A DNA stretch of 61,108 nucleotides, filler included, from Asterionella formosa (Eukaryota): assembly GCA_002256025.1 (NCBI GenBank). It is 5 parts of 5 records of this genome, joined end to end, with 100 filler letters (N's around TTAATTAATTAA, not from the genome) between each part and the next. Parts side by side here need not be neighbours in the genome. Positions count along the whole stretch, not along the records: positions 24,500 to 36,648 come from NKIB01007772.1; 4 more parts are not named here. The stretch is one strand, 5' to 3'. The translations under genes were made by a program, and so were the position numbers. Of this stretch, positions 657 through 48,978 are shown piece after piece (positions within the stretch are counted from its first letter, which is position 1; each line of letters begins with the position of its first letter). Below the pieces are notes generated by a model, which saw nothing but the letters and a program-made list of their open reading frames with translations, was not told where the DNA came from and did no database searches.

Positions 657-3600
657 ATGGCCAACTTGGCGGACCCAAAGCACATGATTGTTCGAAAGCA
701 AATTCAGTCCGTTGAGTTTGGGTTTTACGTCGACTCGGATGTTCGGTCCCGAAGTGTGGTAGAAATCACTTCACCTCAAGCCTTTGATGCCATGGGGACG
801 GCTCTTCCTCGAGGACTGTACGATCCTCGACTTGGGCCGTACGAAACTTCGGCACTGCCCTGCGTGACGTGTGGATGTGGATATCTGTCCTGTCCGGGAC
901 ATGCCTCGCATATAGAACTTGCTGTCCCGGTCTATCATCCCATTTTGTTCCCTCTCGTGGTAAAGCTTCTGAAAGCCAAGTGCTTGAATTGCCATCGATT
1001 AAGAACGGAAAAAGTTCCATTAATGACCATCGAGACTCAATTTAAGCTGCTGCATGCGGGACGACTGCAAGAGTCGTTGGAGTTGGAAACGGTCTTGGCA
1101 CAGTCGGCAAAGACTAGATTGGACGAGACGACCTACAAGAATAAAAAGACAACTTCAGACTCCAAATATGAACAGGCACTTTTAGATGTACAATGCAGCA
1201 TACCGACCTCCTCAAACATTACCATGACTTCCTATGAACGAGAACAAATTAGACTGCTACAAAAACAAGTCATGGGAATGTGTTTCGGTAGTAAAAAGTG
1301 CCCTCATTGTGGTGCCTTTTCACCCAAGATTCGACAGGATTCTTCCAACAAAATATTTCAAGCTCCTCTGAGTACGACCAATGTAAGAATTAACACGGCA
1401 GAAGGAATCGCCTTGGAAAGTGCTTTGATATATAGTCAAAAGGGAGGATTTGATGATGACGACGACCATGACAAAAACCAAAAGGAGGATCACAATAATG
1501 ATGATGACGATGATTCCAAATCAAACGACAATTTCAAAGAAAATGACAAATTCATGCACGCCCTAGAAGTGGAAGCCCAAGTTAAACTCACGTGGGCCCG
1601 ACATCCTAAACTTTGCGAGTACATATTTGGTCCCTCGACCGACATTTTTTTCATGCGGGCCATCCCCGTTCCTCCGGCACGGTTCCGGCCTCCCATGGTC
1701 CTGGGATCCATGACTGTGGAAAATGGTCAAAATGCTTTTTTGAATAAAATGCTTGTTACCAACGATCGCATCAGATCCCTTCTATCCCAAGAAGACACCA
1801 AGTCACAAAATATGGCATTTTCTGCTTGGATTGACTTGCAAACGACCGTCAATTGTTTCATGGACTCTTCCAAGGACCCATCAGCCAATGCAGGATCGGC
1901 ACAGAACAATGGAATCCGTCAAGTTTTGGAAAAGAAGGAGGGGATCTTCCGAAAGCACATGATGGGGAAACGAGTGGATTTTTGTTGCCGGTCTGTCATT
2001 TCGCCCGACCCATATGTAGGAACGAATGAAATTGGAATTCCATTGGTCTTTGCTAGGACTTTGACCTATCCGACACCAGTGTCGGACTTGAATGTGCAAG
2101 AATTAAGGGAATTAGTGATACGGGGACCGAAAAATTATCCTGGGGCTAGTTGGGTACAATTTCCCGATGGAAGACGGGTGGAGTTAGCAAAAATGGGTAA
2201 GATGAAGCGTGAAGCCATTAGTGCCAGATTGCTGGCTTTATTGAATAAGAGTGGGCCACCTGTCATGGTTGGACGACAATTAAGAAATGGTGACATGATG
2301 TTGGTGAATCGGCAGGTATGTATTTCGTTGCTCGTTTTGGTTTTTCGAGATTCAGGCCAAGGATGAGATATCAAGTCATGCACCACTCTGAAGTGTATTC
2401 AATGTTAGATTATGACATACCTAAATCGGCGAAAGTCCACTGCTTGGAGGGCATAGAAATATGCTAGTCAAGTAGTTTTTCGTCGTGCAGAGGCCAGAAA
2501 TAACATGGACGAATCAAAATGAACTTTCTCTCCTTGCTCACAGCCTTTTTTTATCCCTTACAGCCTACACTTCACAAACCGGGAATTATGGCACACGTGG
2601 TGCGTATCTTGCACAATCCTTCGCAAAAAACAATTCGTATGCATTACGCCAATTGTAACACATACAATGCCGATTTCGACGGTGATGAAATGAATTGTCA
2701 TTTCCCACAGAACGACTTGGCATCTGCAGAATCCAAGTATATCGCAGCAACAGACTTGCAGTATATTGCACCAACCGACGGCACCCCGCTTCGAGGCTTG
2801 ATTCAAGATCATGTGGATTCTGGAGTCAAAATGTGTGCAAAGAACACGTTTCTGGAAAAATGGGAGTACCAACAACTTTTATTTGCCGCTCTTGCCTCAT
2901 TGCCTGGCCTAGAGGTAATTCGCATGGATGCCGATATTGAGATGATGCCTCCCGCCATCATGAAACCCAAGCAACTCTGGACCGGAAAACAGGTTATTTC
3001 GACGCTTTTGAATCATCTTCGAAAGAACAACGACAGAGATGACGTCGGCGAACGGAAGAAGGCGATGCCTGGCATATCTGTTGAAGGGAAAGCTAAAACC
3101 CCAGAAATTGGTTTTGGTGCATCCGAAATGGAGCATTTAGTGATCATTCGCGACGGGGAACTTCTCCGTGGTGTTCTCGACAAGGCTGCCTTTGGTGCCT
3201 CTGACTTCTCTTTAGTTCATGCAGTTTACGAGGCTTATGGTCCCGCCAAGGCAGGTCTCCTTCTCAACGCCCTGGGAAGACTTTTCACTGCCTACTTGCA
3301 GTATTTTTCGGGGCACTCTTGCCGAATGGAAGATCTTATTCTCACACAGGCTGCAGACGAAGAACGCCGTAAACTAGTTCAGAGAGCATATAATGTTGGG
3401 GCTCGATCTGCCAAAGCATGGGCCGATTCGGAGGGTGGGAAAGTGCAGATTGAGTCTGTGAAAGATAAGCCTGGATCAGATCAGCCCCTTAAACCTGTCG
3501 AAGCTGCTTCTACTGCCGTAAAAATCGGCCAGTTGTTGTCCGGAAAAGAAGGACAAGCTAACTTTGCTGCATTGGACGGTTACATGCAGTCGCAATTGAA

Positions 3601-6130
3601 TCCTTTGGCTTCTGAAATAATCAAAACCTGCCTTCCAAAAGGACTGAATGTTCCGTTTCCGGAGAATACCTTTAGTCTGATGGTCACAACTGGAGCAAAG
3701 GGGTCAATGGTGAATCAATCTCAAGTTTCCTGCGCATTGGGTCAGCAAGCCTTAGAGGGACGACGTGTACCACGACTCGCAAGTGGTCGAACTCTACCGT
3801 CCTTCGCCCCTTACGACCCCAATCCTCGCGCCGATGGCTTCATCATGGATAGATTTCTGACTGGTGTTCGACCCCAAGAATACTACTTTCATTGCATGGC
3901 TGGCCGTGAAGGCCTTGTCGATACTGCTGTCAAAACGTCTAGATCCGGATATTTGCAGCGATGTTTGGTGAAGCATTTGGAGGAGTTGAAGGTATGCTAT
4001 GATTCTACAGTTCGAAACGGAGAAGGCGGAGTCGTGCAGTTCCTTTACGGGGAAGACGGACTCGACCCGACGAAGGCTGCGTTCCTTGACTGCACCTCCA
4101 AGACCTTTGAGTTCATGGCACGAAACAACGAATCTCTCAGAAGACAATATCCAGCACTCCCCAACGTCACTATCGATGCAGCGGCAGCTGACCGCGATAG
4201 ACTTGATCAACTCCAGAAGCAAGCATCCGATCTTCTTTCTGTTGGCAGTTTGGTACTCGCCCGCAAGCTACGAGTTGGTTCCCTTTGGGTACGTGGTGCA
4301 TTTTGTCGAGGGTGGTTTAACGCCATCGTTACCGAACGTCACCATGATGGTACATATGACCTCAAATATATAAAGGACGGAAACACTATCAGAAGGGTGC
4401 CACTTGAGATAGAGCTTCGAGGCTGCGGTGGCAGAAACGTCAAGGCACTTTGCAGCACTGCTATCTTGATTAAACCGGGTGTAGCAGACCCAATCCTATC
4501 GGGAGGTCGTCGTGAAGACGGAGTCCATCTTGTTGGTATAAGTGGAGCTTGTGTATCGGAGAAGGTTGCAGGAGCAGCTGCATTTGCTCTCAAGAATGAC
4601 AAGAAGCTTCAAAATGCGATGAAAAGTGTGAACTTAACATCGAAGGGCTTCGGTGGCCTTATTGCTGCGAAGTACGGTTCTGCCCTTGTTGCACCTGGCG
4701 AAGCTGTTGGATGTATCGCCGCACAATCAGTGGGTGAGCCGTCGACTCAAATGACGCTGAATACCTTCCATCTTGCTGGAGCTGGTGCTAACGTCACCCT
4801 TGGTATCCCGAGACTTCGCGAGATTATCATGACTGCATCCCGACAACTCAAGACGCCGACTATGTCGGTTCCTTTGAAACCAAATGTATCCGAAAAGCAA
4901 GCAATTCGCCTTACTCGGAAATTTACTAAACTAAGTCTTGTTGAACTCATTGCTGGTCATAATGGGGTAATTGTCAACGAGACACTTCAACAAGGAGATG
5001 GCGGAAACTGGGAGAGAGCCTACCATGTGACCCTCAAGTTCCATCCTCCAGAGAGAATAAAGGAAGCATTTGGGCTAAGTCTCGAGGACATTGCTAGCGT
5101 TGTTATGGAAACATTCAACCCAAAAATTGCCGACATCATGAAGAAGGAACTGAAAAGGTCGACAGCAGAAGGCGACGTGACGTCCATTGAAGTCACAGGT
5201 GGACGTTCTTCTCAGTTTATTAGTGAGGAAAAACCTTTTGGAAATATTGCAGTAGGGAATGATGTTCTCGACGAAGACGATGCTGATGATGACGAGGATG
5301 ACGCAATTGATGCTGAAGACGGCGTAAACGCAGCACGATTTGGTCGACGACCGGAGGAATCGTATGGCGACATGGATGATGATGACCGCGGTGTGGCCGC
5401 CAGTCGCAGTGAAGGGCTTCTTGACGAGGTTGATAGAGATGACAATGACGAAGAGTCTTCCGTTACACCTACGGACGAGGACTCAGAAGAGGACGCTACC
5501 AATCTTATCAACAAGACCGATAAGCCGCAACTTGATTCACGTCGCAACTCAATTACTCTTCCTTCGCTGCGAGTTGACCCTGCTGCCAGGCCTCTACTGA
5601 TGGTGGGTCTCATTGAGAGGGCCGCTGCTGCCACATTGGTCCGATCTCGTCCGCTGATTGAAAAGGCCTTTATCAATGATGAGGAAGGTGATCGAGGCCG
5701 CTGTCTGCAGACAGCGGGTTGCAATTTTTCCGAATTCTGGGCATTGGAAAATGTTGTCCATGACAAACTTGCCTCCAACGATATATGGGCGGTGCGATGT
5801 GCATACGGTGTTGAAGCGGCTCGAAACAACATTGTCGAGCAAATCCAAAATGTCTTTGGTGCCTACGGCATTTGTGTCGATCCCCGGCATCTTTCCCTTA
5901 TTGCTGACTACATGACATTCGATGGTGGGTTCAAGCCCATGAATCGTAATGGAATGGCAGATATTGGCTCGCCCTTTCTCCAAATGAGTTTCGAGACGAC
6001 TGCTGGATTTATGACTGAAGCAGCTCTGAACTCTCGTATTGAAGCCTGTAACAGTCCGAGTGCTAACATTGTGGTCGGGCGTCCTATCCGACATGGTACA
6101 GGTGCTTTTGACCTCTTGACAAAAGCTTAG
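657..6130 (+). CDS. RPA1: DNA-directed RNA polymerase I largest subunit (2 exons: 657-2315, 2564-6130)
   Basis: N-terminal Zn motifs (CVTC...CPGH; CLNC...CPHC), [12 protein letters not shown] and the catalytic NADFDGD. A GT-AG intron at 2316-2563 restores NRQ|PTLH. Also TQMTLNTFH, an acidic Pol I expander-like region and no CTD heptads. Confidence 0.96.
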
Positions 6131-11080: not shown

Positions 11081-11537
11081 GTCTTATATAATATTGCATG
11101 AAATGACAACATTTGCAGATCAACAATCATCATGGGATTGCACAAAGTCTAAACGCATATCAAAGCTTTAATACCATACCGATTCTCGTCAAGTGACTGC
11201 CAGTATAGCTAGGAACTTATACATAGCGAACTCAGAAGTCATGAAACCGATAGAGTCTTCTCTTAACATTCGTCACGACTTCGAAGTTGCCAGGATAGGA
11301 ACAAGACAATACGAACCAACGAGGACATCATGGATTCTAGACAGCAGTGTCGTAGTATGTCAATTTTACATGTAGCGGCTTGTTGAAATGGAATTTATTC
11401 GTTCGTCACCGTTTAACCGAATTGCTACATGCGCACCAGTTCCTACTTGAATACACAATGTAAAGATGCTGGGTATGCTTTTTGGGGAAAGCGAGAACAA
11501 CCAACATGTGTTATGAAGAATGCGAAAATGTTCGCAT

Positions 11538-11685
11538 AATATATAAATGTAAGAAGACTTCTCATGCATACGCACGTCAAGAAAAACATCCAAAAATTTG
11601 TGCAATTCGCGTAATATATAAATTAAAGAAGACTTCTCATACATACGCACGTGAAGAAAAACATCCAAAAATTTGTGCAATTCAT
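11538..11685. repeat. 75-bp tandem repeat, two units
   Basis: TAATATATAAAT..AAGAAGACTTCTCAT.CATACGCACGT.AAGAAAAACATCCAAAAATTTGTGCAATTC starts at 11538 and at 11613. Confidence 0.85.
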
Positions 11686-13351
11686 GATCTGACGAGAAGA
11701 ACGCTGATTCAGCAAAGAATTGATCCAACAGTACTGGCTACAGTATTACCGGTACTGTACATAAAATTATGTAGAATCGCTCTCCTTCAAATATTTCACA
11801 TCTAGAGCTATGTACCACCAGTACAATCATAGTCGATTGTTAACCGAGGATACCTGGTACCTGGTACCTGGTACCACTTAAAAACTGTAAGCCACCGCTA
11901 CGGCCACTTTTGAACTGTAAGCCACCGCTAAACGGAGTAAACGCACGGTTTGAACTTAGTTTACAAGATACGCTATTTATTGTCACGAACGAGTTGTTCA
12001 GATTTATATACCGAGTAAATACTTTCGTACTTGTATTGTTGCATTGTGTACATTGTTAATTAGGTATTATCGCCCAAAGGTTGCTGTCGACGTGAAATTG
12101 CGAAAATTGGATATTTTCACGTTTACTCGATTGAGCAAGCATCACCTTTTATNNNNNNNNNNNNNNNNNNNNNNNNNNNNNNNNNNNNNNNNNNNNTTAA
12201 TTAATTAANNNNNNNNNNNNNNNNNNNNNNNNNNNNNNNNNNNNNNNNNNNNTAAGGGTCATTCAGAAGAAGATCTATTCTCATTTGCAAGTTCTAGTAG
12301 TCATAGTCAGCAAGTTCTAGTTGTCATAGTCAGCAATTTAGTAAATGTCAGCAAGTTCTAAATTTAGAATGGTAGGATTCCCACTATGTGGATTCCGAAG
12401 CTAGAAGATGATTTGCTGAACCTGTTCATCAGTCAGCAAATCCGAGTTGTGTTCAGAGACTCACGCTGCAAATTTGTCATCAGTCAGCAAGAGAAACATT
12501 TTCCTAAATTACTTAAGGAATATTATTTTAATGAAGAGCCAGCCTATCGCCTCTGGCAGGCATTGGGAGTGCATCAAAACTGAAAAGGTGCGCATGAAAT
12601 ATGCAGTACTCGTAAGTAATGTCTACCGATGTATATACCGGTACTGGTCGACACCTACATTCATCGCCATAACTACCGGTATGTTTGGTGTACGTTATGT
12701 GCATTGGTGTATGGTGTGGGATAAACTTAGCTTGGTGTAGGTACGTTTCTACCACGAGGGGAACCAGAGCAACTTACCTACCGGTCGTAGTTAACAAATC
12801 AAAAATTTTCAACACGTGGCAAACCTACATACTGGTACATATGCATGTGTGAAAATGATCAACTCTCGCAGTGGCTGTTGGATGAACATCATCGGTCCAT
12901 GCATTATTCACTACCGGTAGTAACCTGGTACCTGTTAGTACTGTGGTATGTAGTTGCGATTACCAGGAGTACCTGGTACCAGGTACCATGCATCACAATG
13001 ATGCAACAGATGCATCGTCAAGCGTGTTCTCGAATGTAGCTACGTAGAATTTCAGCGCCAGAACTTACTGCGCACTGGTGGTACATTTGTACAGAACTAT
13101 TTGCATTGGCGAGTCGTCAGCGTCATAATTTCGTTTAGTCAAATAAGTCATTTCATTCACTGGCCGCAGTCTTGCTCCTAAAGTCCCAACAATGCTTGCT
13201 TGCTTTTCGGCAAGCAGTCTTTCCTCGACCTTCGAAAAAGGCCAAACCAAAGTCACGACCTTTTTGTGATTGCAGCGACGACTTCAATTGACCCGCCAAG
13301 CAGCTCAGAGCGCTTGAGGCCCACAGAACACCCTCATTACCCTCACATACG

Positions 13352-14741
13352 ATGGCTACTGAAAAGATGGACTTCTCAACAAAAGGAAACTCAAAGGAGG
13401 TGCCGTTGTTCTTACGAAGTAAGTCATGTTTTATTCGAAGGAGTCAAAGATACAGCTAGATTACCGGTTTACATCGTGGTCAACCCCCTGGCCATGTCGG
13501 ACTTGGTGTACTTCGAGATGCGTTTCGCTTACAGTGCTCTGTTTTTTCCTCCAGAAACATATCACATGATTGATTCATGTGATTCTAGTGTGGCGTGCTG
13601 GTCAGATGATGGAGAATCGTTTATCGTCAAGAGCACAGATCACTTCGAGAAGAAAGTCATTCCTGAATTTTTCAAGCATAGCAAGTTTAGCTCCTTCGTT
13701 CGTCAACTCAATTTCTACGGTTTCCGCAAGATTAAATATGCGGACACAATCAAGATCGATGCAAAGCTGGAAGCAGAGACTGCGAACTTTTGGAGGTTCC
13801 GGCACGACAAGTTCCGTCGCGGAAAACCGGAATGGCTCATTGAGATCAAGCGATCAGTTGGAGCTCAAAATCCTCTAAACCCTACTATTATCAAGCCAAA
13901 GCCTATCATTCAGAACGTCGAAGATACAAGTGGTCTCAAAACGGAAGTCACTGTTCTCAAGAAGCGAATCGAAGCGATGAGCAAGAATATCGACGAGCTC
14001 ACGTCACTAGTTCAAAAGGTCACATTAAAGCAAGATGATATAATGCCGTGTGTTGACACGGCAGAACTTGGAACCAAGCGAAAGAAGGTCGATGAAATAC
14101 GTCCAGATAGCTTGGTTAGTAGCATGGACCTTGAGGACTTCTCCGTCACTCGAGAACTTGCCTTTCCTCTGCTGCCATTGGAACTTGGTCGACGATCGAC
14201 ATCTGAGACTTCTGCTATTACCGACGAGGACTTTGTAGACCATCTCTTTACTGCATTCGAGGATGAAAGTTTGGATGGAATGCTCGATGATGTACCTATA
14301 GCCGCACTGCCACAACAGCACACATCGATGGCTTTGGACAACGAGAATGATCCCAATCCCCAACTTATGCGCAAGCTATCTGACGCCCTCAAGCTCCTCC
14401 CGTCAGAAATGCAAGAGATGATTGTAGATCGACTTGTGGCGTCTATCATGACCACTGATTCGTTGCAGAAAAACGTTACCGCCGCGTCGGCGTTGTCCAA
14501 TGCTTCACGAGAGACTCGACCCCTTCAGTCGGGTAGGTCTCTGCCAGTTCAAGTCCCACCTTCTCCAGTCATGGAGGGACGACCATCCCCCGATCAGCAG
14601 CAACCGCAACAAGTTTCCATGTCTTTGGCTGCTGCCACTTTGGCCGCTCTCCTCACACATTATAGCACCACACATGCTCTCAAGGACAAAGCTGTTGTTC
14701 ACGACAAGGCCCTGCCCCCTGTCGTCACAGTACATGCCTAA
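13352..14741 (+). CDS. HSF: Heat shock transcription factor (exons 13352-13418, 13555-14741)
   Basis: An intron at 13419-13554 restores PLFLRK|TYHMID. HSF DNA-binding domain FKHSKFSSFVRQLNFYGFRK, followed by a coiled-coil segment. Confidence 0.93.
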
Positions 14742-16609: not shown

Positions 16610-17106
16610 GCCTAACAGAAATGTTTAGAGAGTCTTGACCTTTGATTGGTGGGAGCACACGTGACAAATACTGGGCTCTATCACCGGTAGACAGATGCGG
16701 ACCTGCATTCCAACACCACTGCTAATGAACAAACCGACGAGAATAAAAATTACAACACATGATGATCAATCGTGCAGTCAAATGATGGTGGATACCGGTA
16801 CCTAAGAATAATCACCAGTGCCGTTACCGGTAGTCTACCACTCATCACAGGAAATCTGTACGGTGATATAATTATATAACTGTATATACCAGTGTATGCT
16901 AGGGACAGGGTATATTGAAATGCTACGTACCTGGTAACAGGGTACCGGTACATGATTTCCCATCCGAGAACACTACATACCGGTATACAACATCTATACC
17001 GGTATATCATATATCGGTAATTGATACTTCCTGTGCAAATAAATCACCTGCAACAAACAACCATGACTTTCGTCGGAATCTAAACCTATCTGTTGGCACA
17101 TTGAAC

Positions 17107-19877
17107 ATGGCGTCAGCGAGCAATATCACCAACGATGCGTTCCCTTGTGGGTCCACGGTTCCATTTCCTTTCGAGCATCCGTATCCTCAGCAAACAGCGT
17201 TGATGGACGCCATGCTGAAGGCCTTGGAACGGAAGCACAGGGACAACTCAAAAGGTGCGGCTATCATGCTGCTGGAATCTCCAACAGGAACCGGCAAGAG
17301 TCTGTCACTGGCATGTGCTGCCATGGCGTGGTTGCGGCATACCGAACAGGCTGACTTTTCAGGCTCCAACGAGGCGGAGACGAAACCACAGGAGATTAAC
17401 AGTGGGATAGACTGGCTGGACTCATGGGTTTCTCCCGAAGAGACGGAACGCATCTACCAAGAAAAAGTGGTACGCCAGCGAGCTCATGAGTTCAGGTCCA
17501 AGCTCAAGGCGGAGATCACTGCCCTGCAAAATAAACTTGCCCCCGACAATCTACGGGAAAGACGAGAAAATCTGGTTCGATCCGCCGTTACGACCGCCAA
17601 AATGTCGGAACGAAAAGTTACGCGAACGATGAAGAAATACTCAAAGTTATCAAAACGAGAAGACTATTGCGTTGGAGAGTATCGATCAGATGCTGAAGAC
17701 CGGGACTCAGACTTGAGCGACACAGAAATGGGAAAATGTGTGGAGTCATCGGACCTTTCGAGCATATTAGACGGAAGAAACTTAGACGGATCAAGCGCCA
17801 CGCATGGAACTCTTTCCATCGGACATGTTCAGCCCGGAAGTGGATACCGAAAAATTATTTACGCCGCTCGAACTCATTCGCAGCTATCGCAGTTTGTAGG
17901 GGAACTTCGCAGAACCTATTGGGGCAAAGATGTTCGTGTAGTTGCTCTTGGAGGAAGGCAGGTGCTCTGTGGAAATGCTACTATAAATAAGAAGGGTAGA
18001 TCTGAGGCATCAATTTCGGAAGCTTGCCTTGACTTACAAAAGGAAAAGAACAAATGCTGCCCACTCAAAATATCGAAAGAAGCTATCTCGACTTTGGCTC
18101 TGCATATGGTAGCTTGTCCATCTGACATTGAGGATTCGGCCAGGTTGGGCCAAGCCTCTCATACATGCGCATACTATGCGTCAAGAGTAAGTGACTCATT
18201 TTCTGTCCTTTCGAACTCGACTTCTCGTGAATTAATAACCGTTTACTGCAGGAAGCACTTGCCACTGCTGAGGTGGTTGTAATGCCCTATAGTATGTTGC
18301 TATCAAAGGCAGCTCGAACGGCTGTTGGGCTATCTTTGAAGAAATCGCTTGTTCTCGTCGACGAAGCACATAATCTTCCAGAGGCTATCCGGACTTTGCA
18401 TTCGAGCAGATTAAATTTGCCTGTTACCGAAGTAGCTTTGGAGCAATTGACTGCTTATACTCAGCGCTATGCCTCAAGGCTTACTGGGAGGAATCTATAT
18501 TACTTGGGACAGATTCGAAAATGTTTGCTGGCCTTCATTAGGTACCTGAAATCAGGTCCGAGTCAATCGCGCAAAATGATGTCATCTGGAGAGCTATTGA
18601 TTGAATTGAAACTTGATAATGTGAACATTTTCAAAATTATTCGATACCTGGAGCACTCTCGCCTTCCTCAGAAGTTGCTAGGTTTTACTACGGTAATCCT
18701 AGATGCATCTAAAGAATTGTCCTCGGCACCTGGGGAGAATACCCTATCAAAACATGTGTCTGCACTCTCTGTTGTACAAGGGTTTCTCGAGAAGCTGACT
18801 TCTACAACCAAGGAGGGTAAGGTTGTGACAGACAGGCCAGCTGAAGTTGTTGATACTGATTCGCGGTCAAGGACCATCCAACATCCAACATTACGGTTTG
18901 TATTGCTTCATCCCGCTGCCCATTTCCAGAACGTTTTGGATGAAGCCCACGGTGTAGCACTGGTAGGGGGGACATTAAAACCGTTTGCTCATGTCGCTGC
19001 CGAACTCCTCGGCATTGAGCACATTCAAGAAGCTGCGAAAGCCGACAATGCCTTTAACAAAAGCACATCCACAACCCTCGAAACTGTTTCGGAGACTTTG
19101 ACAACTTTTGCATGTGATCATGTTGTGCCATCGTCGAATATTCGGCTAGAATGCATGACAGTGGGTCCAACAAACCAAAAGCTAGATTTTCGTCACACGT
19201 CGCGGACAGCAAATGTCGTATGTGATGAGCTTGGGCGAGCCATACTCCAGGTCTGTATGAAGGTTCCTTCAGGTATGGTAGTCTTCTTGCCTAGTTATTC
19301 GTATGAGACCCATTTGGTCCGACGTTGGAAAGCAACGGGGATTTGGCAAGACTTCTTACAACAAAAGAGTGTCTATCGTGAACCCAAGAGCTCTCAACAA
19401 GTAGAAGCAGTTTTGGATGCATATTCTAGAGACGCCCAATCGAAAGGAGCGATCCTGCTTTCTGTAGTTGGGGGGAAGATGAGCGAAGGGATCAACTTCG
19501 CGAATGACATGGCTAGATGTGTCATGGTAGTGGGTCTACCCTACCCCGATATAACAGACCCTGAACTGAAAGAAAAAATGGCAAATATGGACCAGAATGC
19601 TTCCCATTTCAATTGCGCCACCACTGGGCAAGCATACTATCATAATTTATGCATGCGAGCAGTAAATCAGAGTGTTGGGCGGGCCATTCGACATGCTGAT
19701 GACTATGCTGCAATTATCCTCGCAGACGCTAGATATGCCACTGACCAACGAGTTTGGATGGGCCTCCCCACATGGCTTCGGAGAGATGTCTGCCAGTCGT
19801 CCAAAACATTCAAGGCAGTTGGATTAAGTCTAGATTGTTTCTTTGGTTTGAAGCACTCTTTCACGGTTTCGCCCTAA
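17107..19877 (+). CDS. CHL1: DDX11/CHL1 Fe-S DEAH helicase (exons 17107-18186, 18252-19877)
   Basis: PYPQQ Q-motif, LESPTGTGKSLSL, ARTHSQLSQF, Fe-S cysteines, VDEAHNL, SVVGGKMSEGINF and MRAVNQSVGRAIRH. A 65-bp GT-AG intron at 18187-18251 joins the two ORFs in frame. Confidence 0.95.
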
Positions 19878-20000: not shown

Positions 20001-21335
20001 TTAGCTATCATCGAAACGGGCGACATGGGTTTTTTTGCACTTGCGAGGTTCAGACTCTTCAGTTATCCAGCTTCGCCTCGTTCCGGCACAAATTTCAGAG
20101 GTAGGATCGTCCTGGGCTGGGTACGATGCAGTAGCGGCAGGTACTGTCATGTCATCATGATGCGTTCGCATAGACCCCTGCAAGCTCAAAGCGGCATGAG
20201 TCAAGGAGCGCAGCATATCAGGCGCCGACGAATGACTACCAGCTATTGCTTCGACACCTTTGGTGGCGATAAGCTGCTGAACAAGACCAGCAAGCTTGTC
20301 GTACTCAACTGAGAGGTTTGTGATGCGGCGATTATAATCGTATGACATTTCAGACAAGCGCCTATCGAAATCAACTGACATACATTGCATGTGATCCTTC
20401 ATTCTGCAAATTTCTCCGCGTAAGCCGTCTACGTCGTCCTTCGACTGCATCTCTGACTTTGTGGCTCGTTTGATTTGACCCAATAGTTCTGACTGGCCCT
20501 TCTGAAATTTTTCGTGGTAAAATCGGACGTAGCAAGCCGTTCGTGCGTCAAAGTCGGCAGTCAAGATCGGTTCAGCTTTCAACTTGCGAAATCCATAAAA
20601 ATTGAGTTGTCGGGCAAAAGAAGAAAAATTTGAATGCTTGAAGTACATTGGAAGGATATCCTGGGCAAACTTCTCTACGTTCTTGACCACAAAATTATCC
20701 CCAGATGGACTCCACGTGGCCACAGTTGGATCACATCGATCAATCATGTGATAGGTTTCTGCACATAGAAAGCCAAGTCCGGGGCAAGAGAGATATTGTT
20801 AGTTCCTCTGCTTAAGTATTGTGGTAAAATCAAATTTGTGGATTGACATTGCTGAGTTTCACCGTCCATGACAACCTCGTCTCTCCACTTGGTAAAACCA
20901 TCCAAATCAGACCATAACGCAGAATAAAGAAAGTGCAGAGTTTGTTCTCATCATTTAAATTGAAAAATCTGTGTAATTAAGTCCCTAGTTTTGGCGTGTG
21001 CGCGAACTAGCAACATCGTGGCAAGGTAGCCAATGAAATGATTAAGGGACGATGAAGTGCTTGTATTCAGGGCACTTACTGGAAAGAAACATTGGCAGCT
21101 GATGTTGCTTCGGACAGCATTTGCTAGATAACTGAGCTAACTTTTCCTCTGTGCTACTTGCGCTGGCAACTGAGGCTGGCGGTGGAGAGCAGGAAAGCGA
21201 ACAGAGGGCCTCGCACGTCATTACCGTGTTTTCAGCGCACTCTCCGGATTCATTCAAAAACACATGCTCCACCTTGTCATCGGCACCAGGGATTGCCCTG
21301 TCGTTGCTGCCCTTCTTGAGGGGTGTGTTGCTCAT
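20001..21335 (-). CDS. HSF: Heat shock transcription factor (exons 21335-21080, 20758-20001)
   Basis: An intron at 21079-20759 restores LPMFLSK|TYHMID. YFKHSNFSSFARQLNFYGFRK with a downstream coiled coil. Confidence 0.92.
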
Positions 21336-21989: not shown

Positions 21990-22760
21990 TGGTTATAATC
22001 TTGGTTCATGATGATGGAAGGCAGGATGAAACTAGTACTGGCTGATTTTATTTATTTGCATGCAGTTCATCTAATACATTTTTGGCTGGCATGATTCTAC
22101 GAGACTGGCATACTCCAGCAAATCTGATGGAGGTGAGTAAATTCAATTCAACCAATCAGAATATGTGTAGTGACACAGCAGGTCTTACCAAGGAGTCTTT
22201 TTGGATAGAGAATTATGCTGCAAAACATACCTACGCAAGAATCGAAGTGTACAAGAACATTTTTGGATGTTCAAATTCCGATTCTAATATTTTGGTGAGC
22301 AACTGTCCAGAAAAGTCAATCAGGTCGACTTTGGAGGAGGATTGCTCTACATCTGTGATGGGGTTTCATGACGATTAAAATATACAGCATGTACCCTATC
22401 TTATAACGTCATGAGTTAACTTCTGGAGAAAAAGTGCAGTTATGTATCGTAGATTTTTTACAATGCTTCTTGATAGCCCCTTTTTTTTGACTATTTTTGG
22501 GATAGTTACGAATCTACAATACATAACTGCACTTTCTCTCCAGAAATGAGGTCCTTACCATATCTGAAGGTAGAACATACCCTCAAGTCGAACAATGACT
22601 GTATCTAAGGATATGCAAAGTGGTGGTATTGGTGAAAGCTAATTTTACCTTGAACTATTTTATTTAGTTGAAGGTAATGTGTTGATTGAGGTACATCATA
22701 AAAATGTTTTGGGAAAAAAGACCTCACAATGTGTAATTACTGGGCCACAACCATAATGTA
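21990..22760 (+). repeat. Unclassified dispersed repeat, copy A, with a long hairpin at 22421-22545
   Basis: Colinear similarity to ~31470-32380 and ~41690-42200. 35-bp inverted arms at 22421-22455 and 22511-22545 with 2 mismatches. Confidence 0.75.
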
Positions 22761-23786: not shown

Positions 23787-24719
23787 TTAGGGCAATTGAG
23801 CCAGAGAAAGATTTGACGCAATTGTTTTCGCCCAGAGGGAGTACCACATAACAAGGACAACAATGGTGATGCAACAATCATACACATTGCGGTTTCGAAG
23901 AATTGAATATGGAAAAGGGAACAGAATCTATCAATGGTATGTTGGGAGTTTTGGTAAAAGACTGTTTTTACTTAAAGGAAAACACAGCTAAATTTCCTAT
24001 TTACTGCAACTTACTTCTTGGTAACTGGTATGAGTTACCGGTAATTAGTACACAACACATGACAAATAGCAGAGGAATATTGGAGTATGCCTCTGGTAGC
24101 TATCATCATTCCATGGTGAACAGGAACAGTACCTGGTAGTGTAGTGATGACATGAATGACCAATGCATACGTATGTGGCCAAACTTGAGTGAATGGATTT
24201 AAGGGAGGCTGCCTACTGCTAGTACCAGCAATATGTATTTCCAACAGGGTAGGTAATAAAATTATAGAGCACACATAAGTAGAAGTGGACAATTGATAAC
24301 TGTTTTCCTCTGTGTCCGGCAGCATATGCTTTCGTCAAGATATGTTCAGTGCTTGTTTATATTTTTTGCTTAGTAATAAAGAAGACAAAGCTCAATGGAN
24401 NNNNNNNNNNNNNNNNNNNNNNNNNNNNNNNNNNNNNNNNNNNTTAATTAATTAANNNNNNNNNNNNNNNNNNNNNNNNNNNNNNNNNNNNNNNNNNNNA
24501 GCAAAATTACATTACTTGAACTGGTACATTATCCTACCAAGAAATTCGAATACAGGAATCAAATAGAAACAATACATATAATAATTAAATATATGTAGTC
24601 AAAAGGGTTACTATTTAAATTACAAAGGCATTTATCAAAATTATTAGATGATATAACGAAAAATTATGATCAGATGATCACAATCCTATGATGCATCATG
24701 GAAATATGATAGTTTTTAT

Positions 24720-30545: not shown

Positions 30546-30690
30546 TGGTAGTATGGGAAATAGTATCAGTCCATTACCTTTGGTGCACAAAAGTCTCCGA
30601 AAATACACAATGAATTTGTCAAGGGAATTCATGATTAATTTCTGACATAATATCGAGCAAATCAATAATCAATTCTATCAACGATAGAAT

Positions 30691-31465
30691 CACCTATAGA
30701 TACCAATGTTAGGTTGTTTGTACAAGAATGTGATATTGTGTTTGCTCCATTAATACCTAATGAATTTCAATTGATTGAGCAACTGCTGATTGTTGTATGG
30801 CTGGGTGCACAAAGACTAAAGTTTGGGTAGCTAGCCATACTAGAGCTGGAATGTTATTTTGTTCAGCTTTCTGTTGGATGCAGAATCTATCATTTCATTC
30901 CACTTGCTTCGTTCCATCTGAAAACAGTGGTATCTCCAGATCTAATTTGTCTCCCACGTGCACTGATAGCTGTATCTGACCATCATAAGACAAAGAGGTA
31001 TCGGTGCACACGGCAAACAATGCGCCCATCCGTTAAAACATTGACTTGGCTGTTTCAATTCTTCCATAAGCGAACATGCGCTTCATGACCGCTGTCTCCT
31101 ACCAGCAGACCGATTGCGGCTATGCATGCTCCAGAAATACTCAATTGAGGATACAACACAGTCAGTTTAATTAAGCTGCGATAATAAGGGTGGTCAACAA
31201 AGTGCTTTCTCTGTTCATGAGTTCTACACCAACATTCTGGAGATTCAAGTCGGCTAAAAAGTGCAGGTATACAATAATTCCTTCCAAAATCGGAAACGTT
31301 GTGTTATTGCATACCCTCCATCACCTATGGATAGATACCAATGTTAGGTTGTTTGTACGAGAACTTGGTATTGCATATGGTCCATCGTCACCTAATGAAT
31401 TTCAATTGATTGAGTGACTGCTGATTGTTGTATGGCTAGGTGCATGAAGACTAAAGTTTGGGTAT
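30691..31465. repeat. Pair of ~140-bp diverged direct repeats (30691-30830 and 31322-31465)
   Basis: ATAGATACCAATGTTAGGTTGTTTGTAC, CCTAATGAATTTCAATTGATTGAG and AAGACTAAAGTTTGGGTA are present in both copies. Confidence 0.8.
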
Positions 31466-31469
31466 CAGA

Positions 31470-32380
31470 TTGTGGTATGTTACCTTGGTTCATGATGATG
31501 GGAAAACTAGTACTGATTTTCCTTGCCAGTAGCTATACAGAACATCTAATTTATGTGGTTCAAGTGCTGTCTGCAAATAGAAGGATCAATGCTCAACTGT
31601 TAGAACATAACTGATACATGCGTGTTCTTTATCTTTCAGGATAATTGTAATCAAACAGTTTTGTTGTAAGTTAAATGTGGCATTGGTTGAACGATTTATT
31701 GATGTGTAATTATGCAAAAAGTCTCAATTTCTGGTAAGTGAAGCATGATTAAATGGAACTGCAATGATCATGTTAAGGTTTAAACAAAACATGGCTAGGG
31801 GAATGGCTTAGCGGTTCGCACACCTGTTGTGGTGGCAGGTTCGATTCCTGCATTCTCCACCTGTCTTTTCATGTAGTGCCTAGGGTTCCGAGGGGTGTGG
31901 CTAGTGACGAAAAGACAGGTCCCATTGTACTGTACAGACGAATAAAATACTGGTACTAATTGTGTCCATTTATTCATTTATTTAGGCGCGAGTGCGATCC
32001 TTTTGGAGGAGGATTTCTCTACATTGGCAGGGTTTCATGAAGATTATACTATGGCTGTGTACCCCATAGCATCAGGGGTTAACTTCTGGAGAGACAGTAC
32101 AGTTGTCCTTTGTAGATTTTGTACTATGCTTTGTAGCCCCCTATCTAGACTATTTTTGGGATAGTTTAAATTCCAAAATGACAACTTCATTATCTCTCTA
32201 GAAATGAGGTCCTTACCATTTTTGAATATATAACATACCCTTTCATCGACCAATGACTGTATCTAAGCATATGCAAAGTTGTCGCATTGTTGAAAGTTTG
32301 CTTACTTGTACGTGCGTACATCATCCAAATATATTGGTAAAATACAGACCTCGCACCAATGTATGACTGCGGGGCGACGA
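31470..32380 (+). repeat. Unclassified dispersed repeat, copy B, interrupted by the tRNA-like element
   Basis: TTGGTTCATGATGATGG...AAACTAGTACTG matches ~22001-22040, and 32000-32380 matches 22330-22760. Hairpin arms at ~32084-32119 and 32168-32203. Confidence 0.75.
31798..31984 (+). ncRNA. tRNA(Ala)-derived Pol III element, candidate SINE or tRNA-like ncRNA
   Basis: 7-bp acceptor stem GGGGAAT/ATTCTCC with G3:U70 and an A discriminator. A-box TGGCTTAGCGG; perfect T-arm GCAGG-TTCGATT-CCTGC (B-box); D/anticodon region too short for a normal tRNA. 12-bp stem at 31859-31870/31909-31920 and a CATTTATTCATTTATTTA tail. Confidence 0.7.
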
Positions 32381-32828
32381 AGATGGCCAGTGGCTGTTGG
32401 TTGACGAGTGTACCGGTATCTTACCGGTAGCTGAGTCCACTTCTATGATTTCCACGTGTTAGAATTTTGTCACGATTTCAATGTACTGCGCATGGTGAAA
32501 TGCATTTGTTTGCTTGAGGGTGCATCGTTCTCTGTGGTTCCTGTTATCTGGTACCAGTACTAGTTACCTGGTACTCTTTTACCACGATAATTGTAGTAAC
32601 CATTGTCAAATGCTGAGAGGACTTAGTACCAGGTACACGGCACCTATGTACTTCGGAGTAACATCATTGCAGCAAGCGGTTTTCTAACATTAGACACATC
32701 ATGAACATGAACTGCACTCGAGTAAATAATAATATAACTATTACCGGTATTGAATAAACTATTTTTACATTGTTGTATACAGGTAGTTGAACGCTAACAC
32801 TCGTTCACTCCCACCCCATCCCTTCACA

Positions 32829-33500
32829 ATGGCCAAGAAAGCGACGGCTGGAAAGGTCGAACCTGTCAATGCAGTGCCCGTTGGCCACAACAATGGCGTC
32901 GACGGCGTTCTCACAGAAGATGAAGTTGAACTTTTGCAAGTCGACGTCGGTGATATGGTCAAACTCAAACAAATCCTTGACGAAACCGTCGCGTCTGCTG
33001 TTCTCGAAAACGTCGATGAAGAATACAGACTTGATAATATGAAATTGGGCATTATGACATCGGCATGTGTCTTTGCTTGCTTCGCGCAGTTTGCTCCGGT
33101 CCCATTTCCTGACAGCCGACCAATTTTGGGCGTGTGTTGCTGTGTCTACTTTTTGTTGAGCGGACTCTTGCAGCTCATTACGACCTTTGTGGACAAGGAC
33201 TGTATCTTGTTGACGAGGAAAAAGCCAGCATCCAACAATAGTAACTTGCAATTGTATGGGCTCCGTGTTCGTAGCAAGTTGCCCCGGTATTCAGAATTTT
33301 ATACTGTTATTCTGGAGTTTCAGGGATTGCAAGGGACTCCAAAGGTCGAGCAGACGTGGTCGGTGGGAAATTTTTTTGATGTGGAAGGCATGTTCGATGA
33401 AGCTGGTCTCATGCTAGAGATCGAGATGATGTTCAAGAAATTGGAAGCTGAGAAATACGAAAGCGTGGCTCCCGTTTCCCGCAAGAGTAAAAAGGAATAA
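32829..33500 (+). CDS. SPCS2: Signal peptidase complex subunit 2 (SPC25)
   Basis: DMVKLKQILDE, two TM helices around PFPDSRPILGVC, SKLPRYSEFY and SVGNFFDVEG; C-terminal KSKKE ER-retrieval-like end. Confidence 0.88.
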   Translation: MAKKATAGKVEPVNAVPVGHNNGVDGVLTEDEVELLQVDVGDMVKLKQILDETVASAVLENVDEEYRLDNMKLGIMTSACVFACFAQFAPVPFPDSRPILGVCCCVYFLLSGLLQLITTFVDKDCILLTRKKPASNNSNLQLYGLRVRSKLPRYSEFYTVILEFQGLQGTPKVEQTWSVGNFFDVEGMFDEAGLMLEIEMMFKKLEAEKYESVAPVSRKSKKE

Positions 33501-36500
33501 GATGCTAGTGTTTGATCTGATGAAGTGGACGACACTCATCAACGTTTCAAATCTCTATCTCAAGAGGGAAATAAACAGTCTATAGCAAAAAATAAGGAAG
33601 TGAAACTCTGACTGCACATGACATGCCTCCTGTACCATAGCACTGGTTGGTTGTCGCATAAAGTTCAACCTCCAGATTAGCTCACGGTTATCGATATCAC
33701 CTGACTGTTCGTCGGAGATAACTAACAATACAGGGTGTTCCGACATGAAGGGCCTCAACCATTTCTATTGGTCAACGGAGGGGAGTAGCTTCATGCAAAG
33801 GCATACCTTGGACGACTCTGCACATTCCTCGTGCTAGAACTGCACCTCGCTTATTGTCACATGGATATTGACTGTGAGTGCAAGGTACAAGTTCCGTTGG
33901 TATTCTTGGCTCCACAAATGACTAAACATGGTGCCTTGAATGGCATGGACACTCCCACTAACAAACAAGCAGTAGCTACAATAATAGATGTTCAAGAGTT
34001 GCATGCTTTATACAGAATGCTGTACTCGTTAACCTTTAAGTATTCCCTAAATATGTTACAGTATTGTCTTACTTTCATGCCCCTTTAGATTACGGGGGTG
34101 AAGTTCTACCGGCAAGGAAAAGGAGAGCGATACCTGTATATGTACTGTCTACTGATAATACCGGTACCCTGGTAGTCCACAATAACTTCAATCTTAAAGT
34201 TCCTTTAATCCGTCTCAACTGTAATAATCACTATTAATGATACTCGCTGCTATTCTATACATACAAGGCTGCATGGACGCGAGATTGACACACGAGGATG
34301 ATGGACTTTCGAATGGAAAGGCAAAAGATGGCAACACAGTATGCCCTGCTCGCTCACACCAGCTCCCTTCGAACACAACACAGCAACAATCCTGCGGATT
34401 CAACAGCACATGGCACATCCGTCACGTGGAAGCATCGCCCTCCAAGCACTGCAAAATGCTGCCACCAACCGAAGGTTGGTCGCTTCCGTTGTATTGCAGG
34501 CTATGTACCGAACCGTTCACACCGCGGACCAGCCGCCGCAAAACCTGGCTAATTCTGGGATTCAAGACAGGTTGAGGACAGATCCGTTGCTGGGAGTGGA
34601 AGTCAACCAAACAGAATGTGGGCCTGAAAGGATAGAGCCTGAACTCCAAGTGGTTGCTGTGTGAATTCAACAGACTGCCACACTTTCTTGATCATCGTCT
34701 TGAGCCTTCATATACACCAAAACTATTTGAACTGTTTTACTCAGTATGAAATTGTGACGACTTTTGGAAGAATTTGGTGCTCATGGGTGGTTCACTTGGA
34801 GCAGTTTTATTGGTCTTTGCTGCACTTAACAATGCTATTTTACTTCACTTCAAGATTAGCAATTGGAATCTTCTAGTATGGTATGTTGGTGTGCTGAGTA
34901 TAATTTACTCAACAGGAAAGGCTATGCTCCCAGATCCAAAGATTCACCCCTGATACACTTGCTACCTCTTTGCAAAGGTTGAAAACTGCCTTGCTTTTGC
35001 AGTTTGCAGTTCATACCCATTTCTATCCTGATGGTGTGGTCAGGTAAAAGTGTACATAACCATGTACCAAGCAAAAAACTATTTGCTTGGTGTCCATGAA
35101 GGTTTAGTGGTGATGGCATTCCTCCAGTTGTGGTGGTTCCAATGTACATGACAACACCATCTACAGTTGGAATTAGTGTGAATGTTGAGGGGAAAATTCA
35201 ACAATTAACAAGCAGGCAACTATTTGCAATTAGAGTTGGACCTCATTATGGTTCTGGTCTACAAGCAACTTTATGTAGTCCCAGCAAGGCTCCAAAGTCA
35301 CAAGGAATTTGTGTGTGAAGTTGGAATTTGGCAGAGGGAAAGTCAGCCAGGCTATTTACAAGGCTGGAGAGGGGGAGGAATAAATGCTTTTATTATTGGG
35401 TAAGTTATAGAGCAGATTACCAGTAGTTGTGTTTACAGTGCTCATACAATGATCAACAGAAAATATGAGGCATATTGTCAAGAACTTTCAGTGACCCACA
35501 TTTTCAACAAAATGCTTATTGATTAATGCACTGGTGGAAATCCACAACTATGTATTTAGTTTATTACTCCAACTACCACATTAACTAGCATGCACATTAT
35601 TACATTCTCATTGTTTCCATTTAATATCATTCATTTGATTTGATTTACAAATGTGTTAATAAATATGTATTGTAGGAGTACCATAGTATGATAGCCGACA
35701 CAAAATTAATGATCACTGTAAATAAACCGATACATATTGTTATGTATTTCACGAAATGACCAGTATCTGGTCCAAACATACATACCTGGGAGTTTTGAGG
35801 TAGAAGACGGTTTTTACTATAAGGAAGCACTGCTAAATTTCTCATTTACCTCAACTTGCTGATGACATGTAGTTCGTCTCGATACCTGAAAGATGCGGTC
35901 ATTTTGCTTAAATAAGCAATTTAAAATTGGAGTTAAAAAGCTAAATATTTAGTTTCAGCAAAATGACAGTAACTTCCTGGTAGGAGTATCTGGTATACCC
36001 TGTTTATGTACCACCTAAAAACTGAGAGTCATATAAAGTTTACCCCATGTTTCGACTCAAACTATTTTAGTCAAATTTCATGGTGACAACAAATCAAGTA
36101 CGTAGCTAAATGTAGAACAGGCTCTCCGCTTTCAATTGGTCTGTTTAATTAGTAATGAAGCTTCATAATTCAAGAGATATGAAGTTTTTAAAGTTGATGA
36201 TTATGGTCGTTTTGTATGACTATCAATACATATTTTTTACTACGTACCTGAAGAAAATTTTATATTCAAATTCTGGTTTCGATTACCCTATTGTTCACTC
36301 TAAAGCTTTTTCCTGCCACAATATTATTTGTCCGTTGCATCATCTACCCATTTATTATTCATTGTTTTCATTTTTTAAACCTTAAATAATAATGCGTTCG
36401 CCTTTTAACTCAAATATTATTTCAGTTTTTGTGTCAATAATCTTACTTTCATTCGTTTTGATGATGGTTTGATATAGATTTATATAGGGATTATTTACGT

Positions 36501-37209
36501 TTGTCACTAATTAGTGTTCTGCTTACATCAGGCTACTGGTTTGGTATTACTACTATGACAGATGTCAGCCAAGCGAGAATTTTTTGTTTGATTGCTTGTT
36601 TGCTTCTCCACCTTTGCCTCCACCTTCTTGCTCCGCTTCCGCTTCCGCNNNNNNNNNNNNNNNNNNNNNNNNNNNNNNNNNNNNNNNNNNNNTTAATTAA
36701 TTAANNNNNNNNNNNNNNNNNNNNNNNNNNNNNNNNNNNNNNNNNNNNTTAGGTGAGCGATCCCATTGCCAACGCCATCGTCATATCCACGTGCAGGTAC
36801 GTACGCACTACGGATCAGAGTGCGTCAGGTTGCGGAGTCAAGGCGAACTATTTCAGCATTATATTCGATACACGAAAATCTTTGTTATTTATTTGCCGTT
36901 ATTAAATACAAGTAAAGGCATTCAAACAAGAACTCGGATTGAGTGTATAGGTAGTGTGGTAGTAACCACATCCTAAATAGTCTAAATGCATACCGTGATC
37001 ATAGCTGATGTGGTATACAAAATTTGCATAAGCATACATAGGCAAGTCGCAACATTTTTTTGAGTGGACGAGGAGCAATTTTGGTACAAGGAACCAGTAC
37101 CACGAGCGACTGTCTCTACTGCAGTTCTCATTGGTGCATCCATTGGGACACTATAAGTCAATTTCCTTTACAGCGAAGGAACAACAAACCGAGAAAGCAA
37201 CACATTGTC

Positions 37210-41689: not shown

Positions 41690-42200
41690 TCAAATGGCGG
41701 TAAGTAATTCATTTTGACCAATCAAAATATTTAAAATGAAGCGGGCGCTTACAATGGAATTTTTGTACAGGAGATTTTTGGACAAAAATTGAATTACAAG
41801 TCTTCTATTGTGATGATGAGGGTTCGGTGATTAGTGATTATGATTCCGACATTTTGGAGACCATTGAAAAGGCTGATATTTTCGAATGTTTGGATGATGA
41901 TTGCTCAACATTGGCAGGGTTTGAAGAAGAGTTAGTAGGTACATATACCAGTATGTAATCTTCATATAGCCCCAGAAGTTGACTTTCAGTGAGAAAGTGC
42001 AGAACGGAACTTCGGTTTTTTACTTGGCAAATAAACGAGTTGGTGGCCTGGTAAAATCCACTATTTTCAGTAAGTTCCTCTCTGCACTTTCTCGCCAGAT
42101 CCTATATAGCTAGCGTTGACCCATACCCATACAGGTACTTTGATCAATGACTGTATCAAAGCATACATGGAAAGGGTGTATTTTTATGAAAGCTCTGTTT
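41690..42200 (+). repeat. Unclassified dispersed repeat, copy C (most diverged)
   Basis: TTGGA.GA.GATT.CTC.ACATTGGCAGGGTTT and CAATGACTGTATC are shared with copies A/B. Hairpin arms at 41991-42012 and 42072-42093. Confidence 0.65.
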
Positions 42201-46266: not shown

Positions 46267-46979
46267 GGTCGAGTAACTAAACTATGAAATAATGGATAAC
46301 AGTGTACAAAGTGGTCGAATTATGGTACCGGTACGGTATTCATGTTCGTTAGTATTTATTGAACATACCACAGGATACGGACTAAGAGTATACCTGGTGA
46401 CCGTAATATGTAGCTACATGAAGTCAAGGAGGTATGGTTGCATGCACCCACTATCAAATACCGTGGGTACCGGTACCAGGAACCCAGGTACGGAAGGTCC
46501 GGTAAAACACGTTTTAACTTAGGCAAAGACAAAGCTACATATCTCAATTACTGGACCTTCCAGTGTGTCNNNNNNNNNNNNNNNNNNNNNNNNNNNNNNN
46601 NNNNNNNNNNNNNNNNNNNNNNNNNNNNNNNNNNNNNNNNNNNNNNNNNNNNNNNNNNNNNNNNNNNNNNNNNNNNNNNNNNNNNNNNNNNNNNNNNNNN
46701 NNNNNNNNNNNNNNNNNNNNNNNNNNNNNNNNNNNNNNNNNNNNNNNNNNNNNNNNNNNNNNNNNNNNNNNNNNNNNNNNNNNNNNNNNNNNNNNNNNNN
46801 NNNNNNNNNNNNNNNNNNNNNNNNNNNNNNNNNNNNNTAGGACTTCGAAACGGCAATACTGATTCCAATTCCAAATTAATACATGTGTCTCTTCTTTATA
46901 TCCTTTTAATAAACCAACCCGACTGGCTTGTTGTTCCTGTATATTTAGCTTTAATCTGATTTAGCCTAAATGTTGAGAC

Positions 46980-48710: not shown

Positions 48711-48978
48711 CACATTTGCTGGGTGGTACAGGAAACTCCCTTCTTCCTCAGCAGTATGTGGAAAATTCCTTATGTGTATTGTGCACAGACCTTGCTGTTT
48801 ATTTTCCAAATATCATGCGAAATTCTAGTCGCGCGTTCTTCTCCGAAGTTCGCGTACTTCTTTAAAGAAAGTACGAGTNNNNNNNNNNNNNNNNNNNNNN
48901 NNNNNNNNNNNNNNNNNNNNNNTTAATTAATTAANNNNNNNNNNNNNNNNNNNNNNNNNNNNNNNNNNNNNNNNNNNN

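Follow-up and report, generated by a model that had tools for sequence, protein, structure and literature searches.

Within a window of 61,108 nucleotides, by which we mean the whole stretch of DNA analysed here, we identified on the plus strand, from position 31798 to about 32000, what we judge with a probability of about three in four to be a dead copy, truncated at its 3′ end, that belongs to a high-copy family of tRNA-derived SINEs in a diatom. The anatomy of a SINE is indicated by a promoter-boxed, tRNA-derived head lying exactly at the 5′ end, a short non-coding unit, dispersed copies and the joining of one head to two bodies, and further by an AT-rich end and marginal duplications of variable length. 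Reading of the sequence over 31500-32300 located all of the features listed in a preliminary description of this DNA, each at its assigned position, and the combined evidence supports the feature as real and the SINE reading as one that holds once the boundaries are corrected. The extent originally assigned, 31798-31984, proved too short at its 3′ limit, as family homology reaches about 31999-32002. In itself the window copy is a decayed fossil, ordinary junk, which probably now lies without any role in a nest of repeats. The following features were identified.

31798..31859, plus strand: tRNA-like head of 62 nt, with acceptor stem, decayed D region, shortened anticodon-like hairpin and intact T-arm; unique in the window
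31798-31804 (GGGGAAT) with 31852-31858 (ATTCTCC), plus strand: acceptor stem of 7 bp, G3 standing opposite T70 (G3:U70)
31804..31814, plus strand: A-box-like site TGGCTTAGCGG, 10 of its 11 positions fitting the Pol III A-box consensus
31821..31834, plus strand: 4-bp hairpin, CACC (31821-31824), TGTTGT, GGTG (31831-31834), a remnant of the anticodon arm
31835..31851, plus strand: T-arm GCAGG/TTCGATT/CCTGC, with a perfect B-box at 31838-31848
31859, plus strand: discriminator A73, followed in the sequence by CC at 31860-31861
31859..31920, plus strand: body hairpin with perfect 12-bp arms (31859-31870 and 31909-31920) and 38 nt between them, from repeat search and fold
31866..31869, plus strand: run of four T, a possible Pol III stop, 7 nt past the discriminator
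31921..31966, plus strand: body segment common to the relatives by alignment, with AATAAA at 31941-31946
31967..31982, plus strand: two units of CATTTATT, an 8-nt tandem duplication private to the window copy, all four relatives having one unit
31984..32001, plus strand: final stretch of family homology, followed by a break (nhmmer alignment 31798-32002, E 1e-58)
32002..32296, plus strand: adjacent and unrelated high-copy repeat, outside the element, with 78% identity to 22330-22638 and a 5′ truncation at the junction

The 5′ strand of the acceptor stem and the T-arm are separated by 30 nt (31805-31834), and the early observation that these can form one short hairpin is borne out by the pairing of CACC with GGTG. 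The window contains a single B-box GGTTCGANTCC, where 0.07 would be expected. One match to the T-arm 18-mer was found when up to three mismatches were allowed (0.02 expected), and at the same tolerance the combined pattern of acceptor and T-arm also gave one match in the window, compared with none in 100 shuffles. Judged as a functional tRNA-Ala gene the head does possess G3:U70 and A73, which we take to be the identity elements for alanyl-tRNA synthetase (AlaRS), and falls short of a complete cloverleaf. The tRNA finder check which the preliminary description had proposed, and a check against Rfam, called nothing on the window head: ARAGORN reported no genes in the window and none in the six metagenome loci described below, Rfam at gathering score gave no matches in the window, and a permissive Rfam scan of 601 nt yielded eight matches, every one of them far under its gathering score.

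An exact 22-mer scan of metagenome contigs returned six loci (L001-L006), of which five (L001, L002, L003, L005 and L006) carry the element head and four the body of the window copy as well. Since the T-arm and the 3′ strand of the acceptor stem were both set by the 22-mer, their conservation among the loci, and that of U70, is by construction. L004 contained just the 22-mer in unrelated context and was left out of the family counts. L002, L003, L005 and L006 are 77-82% identical to the window copy along both head and body, while L001, from a marine assembly, matches in the head alone (88% over 75 nt) and then continues into a different body. In all four of the copies with a full head (L001, L002, L003 and L005), homology to the window sets in at tRNA position +1, the first G of the head. 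The L002 contig begins 2 nt before its head and the comparison of upstream flanks was therefore that of L001, L003 and L005, whose flanks are related neither to one another nor to the window. The preliminary description had set many copies with a shared 5′ end as the test of its SINE candidate, and such copies were found both in these contigs and in the contig depth presented below. The flank shared by L002 and L006 at 94% identity indicates that these two are paralogues or alleles and not independent insertions, and the independent relatives number four only. L006, in which the 5′ part of the head is replaced by a GAT repeat, was considered as a 5′ truncation of the retroposition type and rejected, its flank being common with L002. 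Searches outside eukaryotic material gave no matches to the head in viral contigs (24-mer) or in contigs of prokaryote genomes (22-mer). A 17-base body pattern did pick up 25 loci in viral contigs; these were set aside as chance, the nhmmer family profile having matched, in every one of them, just 19-31 positions around the pattern.

Comparison of the copies separates the traits of the family from the damage suffered by the window copy. Against the Rfam tRNA model the heads of L002 and L003 scored 30.0 and 28.3 bits respectively (gathering score 29), aligning end to end save for the anticodon arm, in which 13 model positions are reduced to 5 nt. The heads of L002 and L005 fold as a mini-cloverleaf with an acceptor stem of 7 bp, a D stem of 3 bp, an anticodon-like stem of 4-5 bp and a T stem of 5 bp. 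The family head is 62-63 nt long, with an Ala-type acceptor stem, a D-arm, a cut-down anticodon hairpin and an intact T-arm. The relatives retain the D-stem GCT/AGC, which is broken in the window copy. Both the D and anticodon arms had been described as abnormal. The shortened anticodon arm is present across the family and stands as a family trait; the absent D-stem reflects decay of the window copy alone and falls away as a trait of the element. The window copy has lost its D-stem pairing and gained an 8-nt local duplication.

To estimate abundance, contigs of two DNA runs (X1 and X2) and two RNA runs (X9 and X12) were aligned to 30600-33600 at a likeness of at least 80. The single-copy baseline is flat over 32418-33326, at a depth of 19.9 in X1 and 790.9 in X2. 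Summed contig depth, which is not equal to copy number and which in the lake run X1 may include contigs of other organisms, reached 5841.9 in X1 (about 294 times single-copy) and 424121 in X2 (about 536 times) in the head bin 31812-31912, and 1402.6 (about 70 times) and 165704 (about 210 times) respectively in the body bin 31913-32013. Variant letters at 31826, 31827 and 31830 were carried by 32-40 contigs in X1 and 59-69 in X2, and 30-57 contigs per DNA run diverge from the window at 31831, 31869, 31905 and 31947, the loose-end consensus of the diverging contigs being again tRNA-like (D-arm-like), body-like or tail-like. All eight of the X2 pieces among the matches listed lie at a depth of 717-900, near that of single-copy sequence, and so look like separate loci of one genome. 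The family apparently comprises some 10^2-10^3 head copies, with a smaller share carrying the body of the window copy. The single genomic copy which the preliminary description had named as grounds for abandoning the SINE candidate is contradicted by depth and metagenome contigs alike. Within the window itself T-arm pattern, repeat and nhmmer profile searches over the whole length found no second family copy. Among the X9 and X12 matches listed, which represent assembled ordinary RNA-seq and not small RNA, there was no clean RNA contig match to the window copy; the nine listed RNA pieces over 31796-31974 have 5-10 differing letters each and lie on both strands, indicating that they come from other copies.

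The perfect 12-bp stem around 38 nt, the four T at 31866-31869 and the AATAAA noted at the outset were all readily recovered from the sequence. The MFE folds of all five body-bearing copies retain the closing stem of the body hairpin, with z-scores ranging from -3.3 to +0.2. One arm of this hairpin is T-rich and the other purine-rich, so that A/G changes pair trivially and were not counted as covariation. No ORF of 70 amino acids or more is present inside 31798-31945, in keeping with the short non-coding unit expected of a SINE. In L002, L003 and L005 the family unit measures 234-251 nt (about 235-250), passing after the head into a T-rich stretch and the conserved hairpin. All three complete copies have an AT-rich end that shows neither poly(A) nor a true simple-repeat tail. 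The window copy tracks its relatives only to about 31999-32002, and the final 50-70 nt of the unit are therefore missing; a search for them past the neighbouring repeat gave no second family match near 32300-32400 (nhmmer, E up to 10). What had been described as a simple-repeat tail of the (C)ATTT(A) type turns out to be the internal 8-nt duplication, absent from four of four relatives, and does not mark the end of the element.

A run of at least four T, searched for within 30 nt after the head, is found at a distance of 5-15 nt in four of the five body-bearing copies, two of which are paralogues; L005 has only three T after its head, and L001, with its other body, has no T-run. Should diatom Pol III stop at runs of four to six T, the RNA would end before the body and tail on which retroposition depends. 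The position of the T-run directly behind the head is awkward, and constitutes the chief internal difficulty of the SINE reading if diatom Pol III behaves as in vertebrates.

Marks of insertion were sought in four copies, namely L001, L003, L005 and the window copy. A direct match of 11/12 nt flanks the unit in L005 (p about 0.05) and one of 10/11 nt flanks that in L001 (p about 0.03), both of them weak candidates for target-site duplications, while the best flanking match of L003 falls inside the family homology and is ambiguous. No target-site duplication was found for the window copy, whose best local match has a p of about 0.39 against shuffles, in agreement with the earlier statement that no clear duplication was present; nor was any k-mer of at least 8 nt found in common over the following 1 kb. 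No terminal inverted repeats were visible at the ends of the complete copies, no contig joint skipping the element, as expected of an empty-site allele, was present among the joints listed, and no reverse-transcriptase domain was found in the 20 window ORFs of at least 150 amino acids that were scanned (of 30 listed). As a SINE, the family would have spread from master copies whose internal A and B boxes drive transcription by RNA polymerase III, and a LINE enzyme would have copied the RNA back into DNA at new sites, leaving target-site duplications behind. The window copy would have decayed after its insertion, and a deletion or rearrangement may have removed its 3′ end together with part of the adjoining repeat.

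That adjoining repeat has a depth of about 160 times (X1) and 730 times (X2) single-copy in bin 32216-32316, and other copies of it extend upstream of the position corresponding to 32001, as seen in a contig loose end and in a second copy within the window (copy A). The middle part of copy A, 22018-22329, aligns with a further copy (copy C) at a score of 47 against a null mean of 12, whereas against the sequence upstream of the element (copy B) the same part scores 19 against a null maximum of 20. The suggestion that the element interrupts repeat copy B is not upheld in the form of a simple insertion, since the 22018-22329 part of copy A does not resume upstream of the element. The abutment of two truncated elements at about 32000 is most simply explained by a later deletion or rearrangement and not by a clean insertion. 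All bins of 30600-32316 lie over single-copy depth, identifying the region as a repeat nest of 1.7 kb. The SPC25 gene (32787-33500), with RNA contigs that start at 32788-32797, lies about 790 nt downstream of the element.

The diatom origin of the stretch is supported by its gene content. Seventeen of the 20 ORFs of at least 150 amino acids that were scanned (of 30 listed) have Pfam families typical of a eukaryote, including two HSF-type genes, and the named relatives of a Chl1/CTF1-type helicase ORF in the window are all diatoms, the closest being that of Fragilaria crotonensis at 61%. This helicase ORF also has one 100% identical record and further relatives in Mayamaea, Fistulifera, Amphora, Thalassiosira, Ditylum and Corethron. 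The sequencing runs that contain the stretch are labelled as lake, freshwater or algae metagenomes.

The T-run problem keeps two other readings of the element in play, each of them unlikely in our estimation. According to one, the heads would form a Pol III gene family for a tRNA-like RNA of 62-63 nt, CCA-added and possibly charged by AlaRS, with the repeat body as a mere vehicle. An acceptor stem with G3:U70 and A73 fits a small RNA of this kind, the B-box of the head is intact and the A-box nearly so, and the presence of at least four T within 30 nt of the head in four of five body-bearing copies would suit a short head RNA. The shortening of the anticodon is family-wide and hence not random decay, some heads take the mini-cloverleaf fold, and AlaRS is able to charge minihelices composed of acceptor and T stems. 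The T-run 5-15 nt past the head would in this case end the Pol III transcript, RNase P, RNase Z and the CCA-adding enzyme could mature the head RNA, and the body would move by another route. Yet family copies in the RNA runs occur on longer contigs of either strand that have 5-10 differences from the window locus, and the copies are 12-23% different with indels, in the head no less than in the body, which looks like neutral decay rather than selection. The D-stem of the window copy is broken, and the conservation of U70 among the loci was imposed by the search pattern. The full form of the proposal, whereby hundreds of diatom loci would encode an anticodon-less, SINE-borne mini-tRNA released by Pol III and chargeable by AlaRS, we consider more improbable again.

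The other reading, that the element is part of a different class of mobile element with a tRNA-like module, such as a non-autonomous LTR element or an unclassified DNA repeat, draws on its location inside the 1.7-kb nest, on a T-run that speaks against read-through by Pol III and on target-site duplications that are not significant; non-autonomous LTR elements with small-RNA-derived parts do exist, as described in the accessible part of one report (PMC10886601). It is opposed by flanks that are unrelated right up to tRNA +1 in all three copies with upstream sequence (L001, L003 and L005), which together with downstream divergence after about 235-250 nt indicates a short, self-contained unit. 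There are no terminal inverted repeats at the ends of that unit, and the several-fold differences in depth among head, body and neighbouring bins suggest separate families. A single-locus tRNA-Ala pseudogene with an internal deletion is the least probable of the alternatives. Relative to the Rfam tRNA model the heads do depart mainly by deletion of the anticodon arm, and tRNA finders call nothing on them. However the same deleted head, joined to the same body, recurs across numerous contigs from both DNA runs and is carried by five metagenome contigs, four of which have the window's body, and a lone pseudogene was ruled out by these copy data.

As a SINE, the family provides a clear example of this type of element in diatoms, where such elements have barely been described. 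As a family whose head and boundaries are defined and whose copies apparently number in the hundreds, it would offer a concrete model of non-LTR retroposition, a potential marker system for population genetics and phylogeny and a lead towards its LINE partner, and the reach of the head extends to a marine contig in which it is joined to another body. The miniaturised Ala-type head with its immediate T-run is a small oddity, and the question of the Pol III product is directly testable. Were the mini-tRNA reading true, the family would represent tRNA-like RNAs that are borne by SINEs and open to charging, in principle a counterpart of mascRNA or of the tRNA-like domain of tmRNA.

Among known systems, mascRNA and MEN-beta (RF01684) resemble the head in being tRNA-like, about 60 nt long and aberrant in the anticodon region. 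However the window scores 13.6 bits against the mascRNA-menRNA model, with a gathering score of 42.5 and an E of 9.8, the window sequence upstream of the head shows no A-rich or triple-helix context, and mascRNA sits at the end of one lncRNA whereas the family head is repeated hundreds of times. The tRNA-like domain of tmRNA likewise has an Ala-type acceptor with G3:U70, an intact T-arm and no anticodon, but the scores of the tmRNA models (RF00023, RF01850 and RF04321) are 14-18.5 bits against gathering scores of 47-84 and rest on the T-arm, the best being beta_tmRNA at 18.5 bits against 84. The window moreover has no tag reading frame and no ARAGORN tmRNA, and is part of a eukaryotic nuclear genome. 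Membership of either the tmRNA or the mascRNA family was rejected, every score being far under the Rfam gathering scores. The Helenus and Ajax non-autonomous LTR elements, as far as the accessible text describes them, share with the family a small-RNA-like module within a repeated element and differ in that the tRNA-like part of the family is placed at the extreme 5′ end, the unit being solitary and about 240 nt long (PMC10886601); no LTR structure was seen around the three copies with upstream flanks (L001, L003 and L005).

The closest correspondence is with tRNA-derived SINEs, with which the family shares a tRNA head bearing A and B boxes exactly at the 5′ end, a non-coding unit of about 240 nt built of head, body and tail modules with one head on two bodies, and many dispersed copies with candidate duplications of variable length. 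Unlike typical members of that class, the family has an unusually short head (62-63 nt) in which the anticodon arm is cut down, a run of four to six T almost at once behind the head, and an AT-rich end which is neither poly(A) nor a clear simple repeat. In the portions of the diatom literature that are openly accessible, SINEs appear mostly as entries in repeat statistics. For Phaeodactylum tricornutum 13 'putative SINE' copies were reported that cover 1,454 bp and are described as the first from any diatom (PMC5859163), SINEs were detected by RepeatMasker in Cyclotella cryptica, the authors of that study remarking that SINEs were formerly believed absent from unicellular eukaryotes and that their functional roles, if any, are poorly understood (PMC7466962), and SINEs account for 0.02% in Chaetoceros tenuissimus (PMC8613185) and are a class among the repeat statistics of Pleurosigma pacificum (PMC12803021). 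We found no structural description of a diatom SINE in the openly accessible article texts. The 'putative SINEs' of such pipelines, as given in the accessible text, share with the present family the host group and the nominal class, and are set beside it by counts and percentages, not by sequences. By this measure, and on the published portion available, the family is seemingly far more abundant than the 13 copies of P. tricornutum.

The 62-nt tRNA-like head of the probable SINE copy recurs in a marine metagenome contig (L001:461-704), where about 180 nt of unrelated body follow it and the unit has a candidate flanking duplication matching at 10/11 nt; this association suggests that the head may be common to several SINE families of marine and freshwater diatoms. 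A further metagenome contig of 5 kb is identical over 22 nt to the T-arm and acceptor strand (L004:501-522, minus strand) and unrelated over the rest of its length. Since exact identity over a 22-mer is unlikely to have arisen by chance, this stretch may be a fragment of a member of the SINE family.

The SINE copy is adjoined by a second high-copy repeat, located in the window at:

32002-32296, copy adjoining the SINE copy
22330-22638, further place (copy A)
41889-41934, further place

Over the end of the first of these, the bin 32216-32316 reached a depth of about 160x and 730x in DNA runs X1 and X2 respectively (summed contig depth relative to single-copy depth, not copy number). The repeat looks MITE-like because of the internal inverted repeat in copy A, with arms at 22403-22464 and 22502-22563. 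A diverged copy of 32193-32296 lies within a 3015-nt poly(A) RNA contig of depth 1664.

The repeat nest around the SINE copy also contains a 134-nt direct repeat (30696-30829 and 31331-31464; 87% identity, 635 nt spacing), and contigs from both DNA runs contain joins or loops between its two copies, suggesting an additional repeat family. Window 29776-29874 matches L005:880-979, on another metagenome contig (80.6% match, 103 nt), which represents another repeat family, common to the window and the source organism of L005. A 75-nt unit is duplicated in tandem at 11531-11680 with 93% identity. Paired 44-nt N runs recur at a regular spacing of ~12.2 kb (12153-12252, 24400-24499, 36649-36748 and 48879-48978) and a single 268-nt N run occupies 46570-46837; the N runs look like stretches that were masked or withheld rather than biology.

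Further genes of the window are:

579-6130, plus strand, RNA polymerase largest-subunit gene, two long ORFs
13182-14741, plus strand, HSF-type DNA-binding gene
16903-19877, plus strand, Chl1/CTF1-type helicase gene, two long ORFs
20001-20798, minus strand, HSF-type DNA-binding gene

The ORF splits in the polymerase and helicase genes probably reflect short introns or frame changes. The two HSF-type genes lie within 7 kb of each other and are linked by a 43-nt inverted repeat pair (13552-13594/20719-20761). HSF expansion is known in diatoms, and the gene pair with its inverted repeat is consistent with such an expansion.
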